Assembly (NCBI RefSeq): GCF_048403405.1
Contig: NZ_CP183129.1
Length of the DNA: 64,000 nt
Source of the DNA: Escherichia coli
Lineage (GTDB): Bacteria > Pseudomonadota > Gammaproteobacteria > Enterobacterales > Enterobacteriaceae
Direction: 5' to 3' (one strand)
Part shown: positions 11,002 to 11,595 of the stretch, piece by piece
Layout of the letters: each line of letters begins with the position of its first letter
Numbering within the stretch: the stretch's first letter is position 1
Notes under the pieces: model-generated
The model's input: only the letters and a program-made list of their open reading frames with translations
Told to the model about the DNA's origin: nothing
The model's database searches: none
Position numbers and translations under genes: made by a program

Positions 11002-11391
11002 CTAATGAAAAAAACGCGTATGCCTTTGCCAGACAAGCGTTATAGCTATCGCGGCAAGTATCCCAAAGAAGCCGATAAAATAGTAATAGAGTGTTAATGC
11101 ACCTGTAAAAGCGCAACGAACCGGACTCCACAACTCTTCGCTATGGCATTTTCCTGCCAGTTCAAGGAGCTTATTTCGTCCATGCGAGATAATGCCTGAC
11201 CATAACACAATCATTAAGCAACTTATTACCCAAACGGGTCGTTCACTCATTAATGCGGCATCCATGATGATCACCAGGGCCAGCTCTGCGGTTGCCACCA
11301 TACCCAAAGCGGTAATGAGCCATATACCGTTTAATATCCTGGCCTCGTGCTGAAAATCTAATTTATTGCTGTTTTGCGAGTATGATTCCAT
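11002..11391 (-). CDS. ybhM: YbhM-like small inner membrane protein (possibly shortened allele)
   Basis: ORF 11002-11418; probable start MESYSQNSN at 11391; hydrophobic helices; position between ybhN and ybhL matches ybhM, but the ORF seems shorter than I recall for K-12. Confidence 0.5.
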   Translation of the reverse strand: MESYSQNSNKLDFQHEARILNGIWLITALGMVATAELALVIIMDAALMSERPVWVISCLMIVLWSGIISHGRNKLLELAGKCHSEELWSPVRCAFTGALTLYYYFIGFFGILAAIAITLVWQRHTRFFH

Positions 11392-11595
11392 TCTTTTAGT
11401 TGTCCTTAGAAAAAACATTAATATTTACCATCAATAAATTTAAAGCCACGCATACAAAATACTTTTGTATTTATGGATACGGAAAACACTTCCACTCGGC
11501 CATAAGGCGTATTTTATACCTGGTACTTGTTAAGTGTCGTTTTTAGTAAGAAAAAAATCCCGACACATGGCCGGGATATTGATGGTGAAAAAGAA

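Follow-up and report, generated by a model that had tools for sequence, protein, structure and literature searches.

A natural in-frame deletion allele of ybhM in the ybhL-ybhN slot of Escherichia coli

The closest described systems are the proteins of the BI-1/YccA family. YbhM of K-12 (b0787, 237 aa, WP_000446911.1) is an uncharacterised inner-membrane protein of this family. YbhL of E. coli and YetJ of B. subtilis (PDB 4PGR) belong to the same Pfam family as YbhM (Bax1-I, PF01027), and the C-terminal TM6-TM7 parts of these proteins can be aligned. YbhM is only about 22-24% identical to these canonical BI-1 members. The conserved Asp pair of the BI-1 family is absent from YbhM in both allele types, long and short, which carry His (ISHGRNK) and Tyr (LYYYFIGFF) where YbhL and YetJ carry the two Asp of TM6/TM7. 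In the YetJ structure paper, this TM6/TM7 Asp pair is reported to act as the pH sensor. Judged from its sequence, YbhM is a divergent BI-1 paralogue even before the deletion described here, and it probably does not work like the canonical members of the family. The search of PDB chains with the K-12 YbhM sequence returned no match, no YbhM model was found in NCBIfam, and no literature on ybhM function was found.

The window in this work is the whole stretch of E. coli DNA that was analysed, which is 64,000 nucleotides long. The gene order in the window is ybhP-clsB-ybhN-x-ybhL-moaEDCB where x denotes the ybhM slot. The features of the slot and its neighbours are as follows.

10010..10966, + strand: ybhN, the convergent downstream neighbour of ybhM
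11002..11391, - strand: ybhM deletion allele of 129 codons and a stop, equal to K-12 YbhM minus W39-A146
11392..11418, - strand: nine-codon in-frame upstream extension that arises from an ATA to ATG change at 11416-11418
11511..11540, - strand: promoter-like ACGACA-18-TAAAAT that the window has kept in the spacer between ybhL and ybhM
11557..11577, - strand: intrinsic-terminator-like hairpin and T-run after ybhL, with the promoter-like site downstream of the hairpin
11596..12300, - strand: ybhL, the upstream neighbour, which encodes a full-length BI-1/YccA family paralogue of 234 aa (Pfam Bax1-I, 211.5 bits)

The gene in the slot is orthologous to ybhM of K-12. It lies between ybhL and ybhN, it has the same start and stop as the K-12 gene, and the DNA homology is collinear throughout the retained gene. 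The first-pass annotation had counted about 130-138 open codons between the ybhN 3' end and ybhL, and had given K-12 YbhM as a paralogue of YbhL of about 237 aa. These claims agree with our results. YbhM and YbhL are both Bax1-I proteins at the identity given above, and ybhM of the K-12 derivative J53 is 714 bp and 237 aa long (L001:1603-2316). The ORF list gives 138 codons on the - strand (11002..11418) when counted from the first ATG, and 129 codons are obtained from the conserved ybhM start (MESYSQNSNK...), which is the ATG at 11391. PGAP also places the ybhM start at 11391 in TUM14771. The ATA to ATG change at 11416-11418 is specific to the window lineage, with K-12 and the short allele of GIMC1405 both reading ATA in the alignment, and this ATG is probably not the real ybhM start. 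The change accounts for the 138 aa, instead of 129, given by mechanical ORF calling and by some older annotations. Annotations of the 138-aa form are confined to older records, EFJ82071.1 (MS 69-1) among them.

When the window is aligned at the DNA level with J53 and with another short allele, there is one gap of exactly 324 bp (L001:1890-2213) and no other indel. The DNA identity to K-12 is about 96% on either side of this gap. The protein alignment of the window with K-12 exhibits an internal gap of 108 residues where W39-A146 are missing and the frame is kept, and the 129 retained residues are 95% identical to K-12 YbhM. A truncated or deleted allele had been suggested in the first-pass annotation, together with an alignment to look for an in-frame deletion or a frameshift. 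That alignment reveals an in-frame deletion of 108 codons without a frameshift, and the frame had been called correctly. The allele is therefore deleted, with one internal in-frame gap of 324 bp, and it is not truncated because both ends, the start, the stop, and the frame are kept. No frameshift, premature stop, or lost start that would denote a pseudogene was found, as the deletion is a multiple of three and the frame stays open between the conserved ATG and stop. PGAP calls the window-type ORF of 129 codons a CDS in TUM14771.

The junction of the deletion was refined by comparing seven short alleles with seven long alleles. The long alleles carry an imperfect 11-bp direct repeat (CAGGRYTGGCC) twice, and the two copies are 324 bp apart. 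The left copy, CAGGRCTGGCC with TGG after it, encodes A-G-L-A-W in TM1, and the right copy, CAGGGTTGGCC with CTG after it, encodes T-G-L-A-L in TM5. In all seven short alleles, repeat position 6 is the C of the left type and the CTGGTG that follows is of the right type, which places the crossover inside the shared TGGCC (11278-11282). The exact homology at the crossover is only 5 bp. The left copy also carries an A/G polymorphism that occurs in short and long alleles alike. We infer that illegitimate recombination or replication slippage between the short direct repeats would have made the deletion. The features at the junction are as follows.

11278..11288, - strand: deletion junction with a single hybrid repeat copy, CAGAGCTGGCC
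11284..11286, - strand: codon 36, GAG (Glu), which is GGR (Gly) in the other short alleles and in the long alleles; G36E is a substitution of the window lineage in the fused TM helix, at the junction (CAGAGC)
11260..11262, - strand: codon 44, GAT (Asp); N44D in the fused helix is found in the window sub-lineage

The TM segments in this work are Kyte-Doolittle hydropathy estimates and not structures. K-12 YbhM exhibits about seven hydrophobic segments (roughly 19-41, 55-72, 78-98, 101-127, 134-156, 160-179, and 205-229), whereas the window protein exhibits only three, which are a fused TM1/TM5 (about 19-48), TM6, and TM7. By hydropathy, the deletion spans from the middle of TM1 to the middle of TM5, so that the second half of TM1, TM2-4, and the first half of TM5 are gone. 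Four TM spans' worth is removed, and since this is an even number, the predicted orientation of TM6 and TM7 is unchanged. The residue N44 corresponds to a conserved TM5 Asn found in YbhM, YbhL, B. subtilis YetJ, and the third paralogue described below. K-12 YbhM scores 75.1 bits against Pfam Bax1-I and covers profile positions 3-205. The 129-aa window protein scores 30.4 bits, which is under the gathering cut-off of 34.1 bits, and covers only profile positions 127-205 of 207. It therefore falls outside the BI-1/YccA family by profile score and coverage, and its three hydropathy segments are fewer than the seven of the family. The missing segment encodes profile positions of about 20-126 and is homologous to YbhL and YetJ.

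The frequency of the allele was determined with blastn in a set of 5426 complete E. coli genomes. The K-12 segment of 324 bp is present in 4809 of these genomes. The deletion junction, searched with an 80-bp probe at a threshold of E <= 1e-16 that is too strict for half-matches, is present in 575 of them (10.6%), where it occurs on several diverged haplotypes. Together the two classes make 5384 of 5426 genomes. Among the 42 or so genomes in neither class there are probably cases where IS1 caused the loss or where the locus was replaced. Megablast under-counted both classes and left about 800 genomes in neither, because identity is only about 91% in the long alleles of B2 type, and blastn reconciled the numbers. 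Split matches were also considered as a third deletion class; they consist instead of IS1 insertions and the three-gene arrangement described below. When sorted by identity to the window, 173 junction matches are at least 99% identical, 289 are 95-99% identical, 111 are 90-95% identical, and two are 80-90% identical. The matches of at least 99% include strains named 'ST38', MS 69-1, and TUM14771.

The window allele is a common natural variant that is already catalogued in RefSeq and is not new. TUM14771 is 100% identical to the window over the 801-bp region 10900-11700, which includes the whole gene. Its RefSeq protein, WP_000446922.1 (129 aa, 'hypothetical protein'), is the exact window protein with identical CDS coordinates, and the window is one more copy of it. 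The exact 129-aa protein is found on at least 1000 public contigs, and its 90% cluster has 452 distinct members with names that include 'hypothetical protein', 'FtsH-binding integral membrane protein', and 'Inner membrane protein'. For the sibling short alleles, WP_000446924.1 and WP_000446942.1, the annotated name is either 'hypothetical protein' or 'Bax inhibitor 1 family protein'. Among the junction matches listed, 70 of 70 are annotated as CDS under one of these last two names. A Q122-stop variant of the short allele (121 aa) was also observed on 248 contigs (among P0006, P0009, and P0010). The proteins seen further include C-terminal frameshift variants of the short allele (135 and 140 aa), apparently in the T-run before the stop.

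The polarity of the change was read from the missing segment and from other Escherichia species. Outside E. coli, the representatives of two Escherichia species, Escherichia sp. E1V33 and Escherichia sp. MOD1-EC7003, have the 237-aa form of ybhM. The missing segment encodes helices homologous to the family, and together with the 237-aa ybhM of other Escherichia this identifies the long form as ancestral and the short form as the deletion. The degenerate-pattern scan, which used one genome per species, returned only these two representatives and one contaminant contig. That contig is the 276-bp JALLOH010000717.1 (L021:1-276) from an 'Acidobacteriia bacterium' MAG. By eye, it closely resembles an E. 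coli long-allele ybhM and is almost certainly contamination of the Acidobacteriia assembly.

The best explanation of these findings, to which we give a probability of roughly 85%, is that the window carries a natural ybhM deletion allele that would have formed by slippage, with a probable single origin and a probable loss of the ancestral function. Of this, the deletion with its boundaries, frequency, and polarity was observed directly, and the remainder is a proposed course of events. The ancestral gene of 237 codons would have lost 324 bp (108 codons) in frame when recombination or slippage paired the copies of the 11-bp repeat, whose translation in TM1 and TM5 is T-A/T-G-L-A. The deletion joins the first half of TM1 to the second half of TM5 and takes out TM2-TM4, and the promoter, the start, the frame, TM6, TM7, and the stop stay intact. 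The product, if made, is predicted to be a 129-aa remnant of three TM segments with the original orientation of TM6/TM7, in which most of the seven-TM BI-1 fold would be gone. Two things may help to keep the ORF intact: the deletion is in frame, and recombination with long alleles refreshes the flanks. The window sub-lineage has gained the two acidic substitutions G36E and N44D in the fused helix. We lean towards the view that the remnant has lost the ancestral function.

The fate of the remnant was assessed from seven sampled short alleles, which are the window, L003, L007, and L014-L017. All seven share the same junction and an intact CDS of 390 bp, encode six different proteins, and lie on at least five diverged haplotypes. 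The Nei-Gojobori pairwise means of the short alleles are pS 0.090, pN 0.018, and dN/dS 0.19. The same codons in the long alleles have a dN/dS of 0.33, so that the value of the short alleles is no higher. An intact ORF across diverged haplotypes with these values is what purifying selection would give. It could indicate that the remnant is a functional small 'mini' BI-1 derivative of three TM segments (TM1/5 hybrid, TM6, and TM7) that is kept by selection. The retained promoter-like site and start codon, the even number of TM spans removed with its preserved orientation of TM6/TM7, and the allele frequency of 10.6% also point in this direction, and the CDS annotation of all 70 junction matches listed speaks against loss of function. 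However, the haplotypes are mosaic. The 3' half of 19KM1831 is identical to K-12 and the 3' end of JSWP006 is common with GIMC1405. Recombination with long alleles can thus bring in 'selected' variation and preserve an open ORF, and the low dN/dS is not decisive on function for this reason. The most recent pair, the window and K_EC180, exhibits no synonymous change and four nonsynonymous changes. Glu and Asp lie in the fused helix of the window allele where the Asn conserved in the family has been changed, premature-stop and frameshift variants circulate, and the locus withstands IS insertions and outright replacement. We consider a remnant maintained for such a derivative function unlikely. 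The 0 to 4 changes against K_EC180, N44D, and the circulating premature stop are counted in support of relaxed constraint in the window lineage, as far as these sequences suggest.

It also seems distinctly improbable that a new small membrane protein of three TM segments, kept by selection and with its own role in the carrier lineages, came out of the in-frame deletion. Such a role, if true, would explain why haplotypes at pS of about 0.09 still have an intact ORF. A remnant under selection, if true, would be a small natural example of membrane-protein remodelling by the removal of an even number of TM helices.

In our preferred reading, a single ancient event is the most likely source of the deletion allele, which now segregates in E. 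coli at a frequency of about 10%. The NJ tree of the retained 390 nt places the short alleles in one clade, which is consistent with a single old event, and part of the signal for this grouping comes from the junction position. The same deletion could instead have recurred independently if the 11-bp repeat were a slippage hotspot, in place of one event followed by spread. The short alleles do lie on haplotypes that are 2-4% apart in ybhM and ybhN, and the A/G polymorphism of the left copy, common to short and long alleles, argues against a single origin. However, the repeat is short and imperfect with just 5 bp of exact homology at the crossover, the crossover interval is identical in the seven short alleles that group in the NJ tree, and mosaic flanks are readily accounted for by recombination. 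Recurrence is thus a doubtful account of the short alleles.

There is practically no chance that the short ORF is an artefact of sequencing or assembly error, of a wrong frame, or of an unusual insertion-bearing form in K-12: one clean in-frame gap of 324 bp with identical frames on both sides excludes a frameshift or wrong frame, the junction in 575 independent complete genomes and the population counts (575 and 4809 of 5426) exclude an assembly artefact, and the homology of the missing segment to YbhL/YetJ with the 237-aa form in other Escherichia species speaks against an insertion in K-12.

The ybhL-ybhN slot behaves like a small variable cassette site. The GC content is 0.44 for ybhM and 0.33 for the upstream spacer, compared with 0.51 for the whole window, and the deletion allele is one example of the variability of this AT-rich slot. 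A genomic SELEX study of K-12 (PMC3946193) lists a site of the RpoD holoenzyme, ACGACA-16-TATAAA, for the ybhL-ybhM spacer, and the row bears the mark HNS. The -35 hexamer of the window, ACGACA (at 11540), is that of the K-12 RpoD site, whereas the spacer and the -10 hexamer differ (18/TAAAAT in the window and 16/TATAAA in K-12). An extra BI-1 paralogue (234 aa, WP_001299026.1, 27% identical to YbhM) is located between ybhL and ybhM in 750 of 5426 genomes. It was observed at L005:3386-4090 in RM10809-3 and at L012:3386-4090 in MY1-8, where it results in three tandem paralogues. The N-terminus of ybhM differs (MNSRSANNITN...) in these genomes.

The gene ybhM is apparently dispensable, with insertions of IS1, IS200C, and IS5 and replacement by other genes at the locus. 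IS5 is reported to interrupt ybhM in RR1/HB101, a laboratory strain (PMC5379014). The 129-aa allele matters little for biology at large since the gene is uncharacterised and apparently dispensable and the allele is already in RefSeq and found in hundreds of genomes. For annotation, the 129-aa 'hypothetical protein' can be read as ybhM with W39-A146 deleted. The window haplotype could also be tried as a lineage marker as it is common to strains such as 'ST38' and MS 69-1.

Other arrangements were observed at the locus. The long ybhM of EC24 is split by IS1F, IS1B stands in place of most of the gene in 254D-1, and IS200C lies in the ybhL-ybhM spacer beside the short allele in DA33137. The IS coordinates at the locus are L004:1688-2385, L013:1642-2339, and L018:1062-1520. 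In the divergent E. coli GDSC2227PM, a DUF3969-family gene and a small hypothetical ORF replace ybhM (L006:1721-2312, GC 0.37). Escherichia sp. MOD1-EC7003 carries an ORF in the corresponding position (L020:1934-2311) beside the 237-aa ybhM and the third paralogue.
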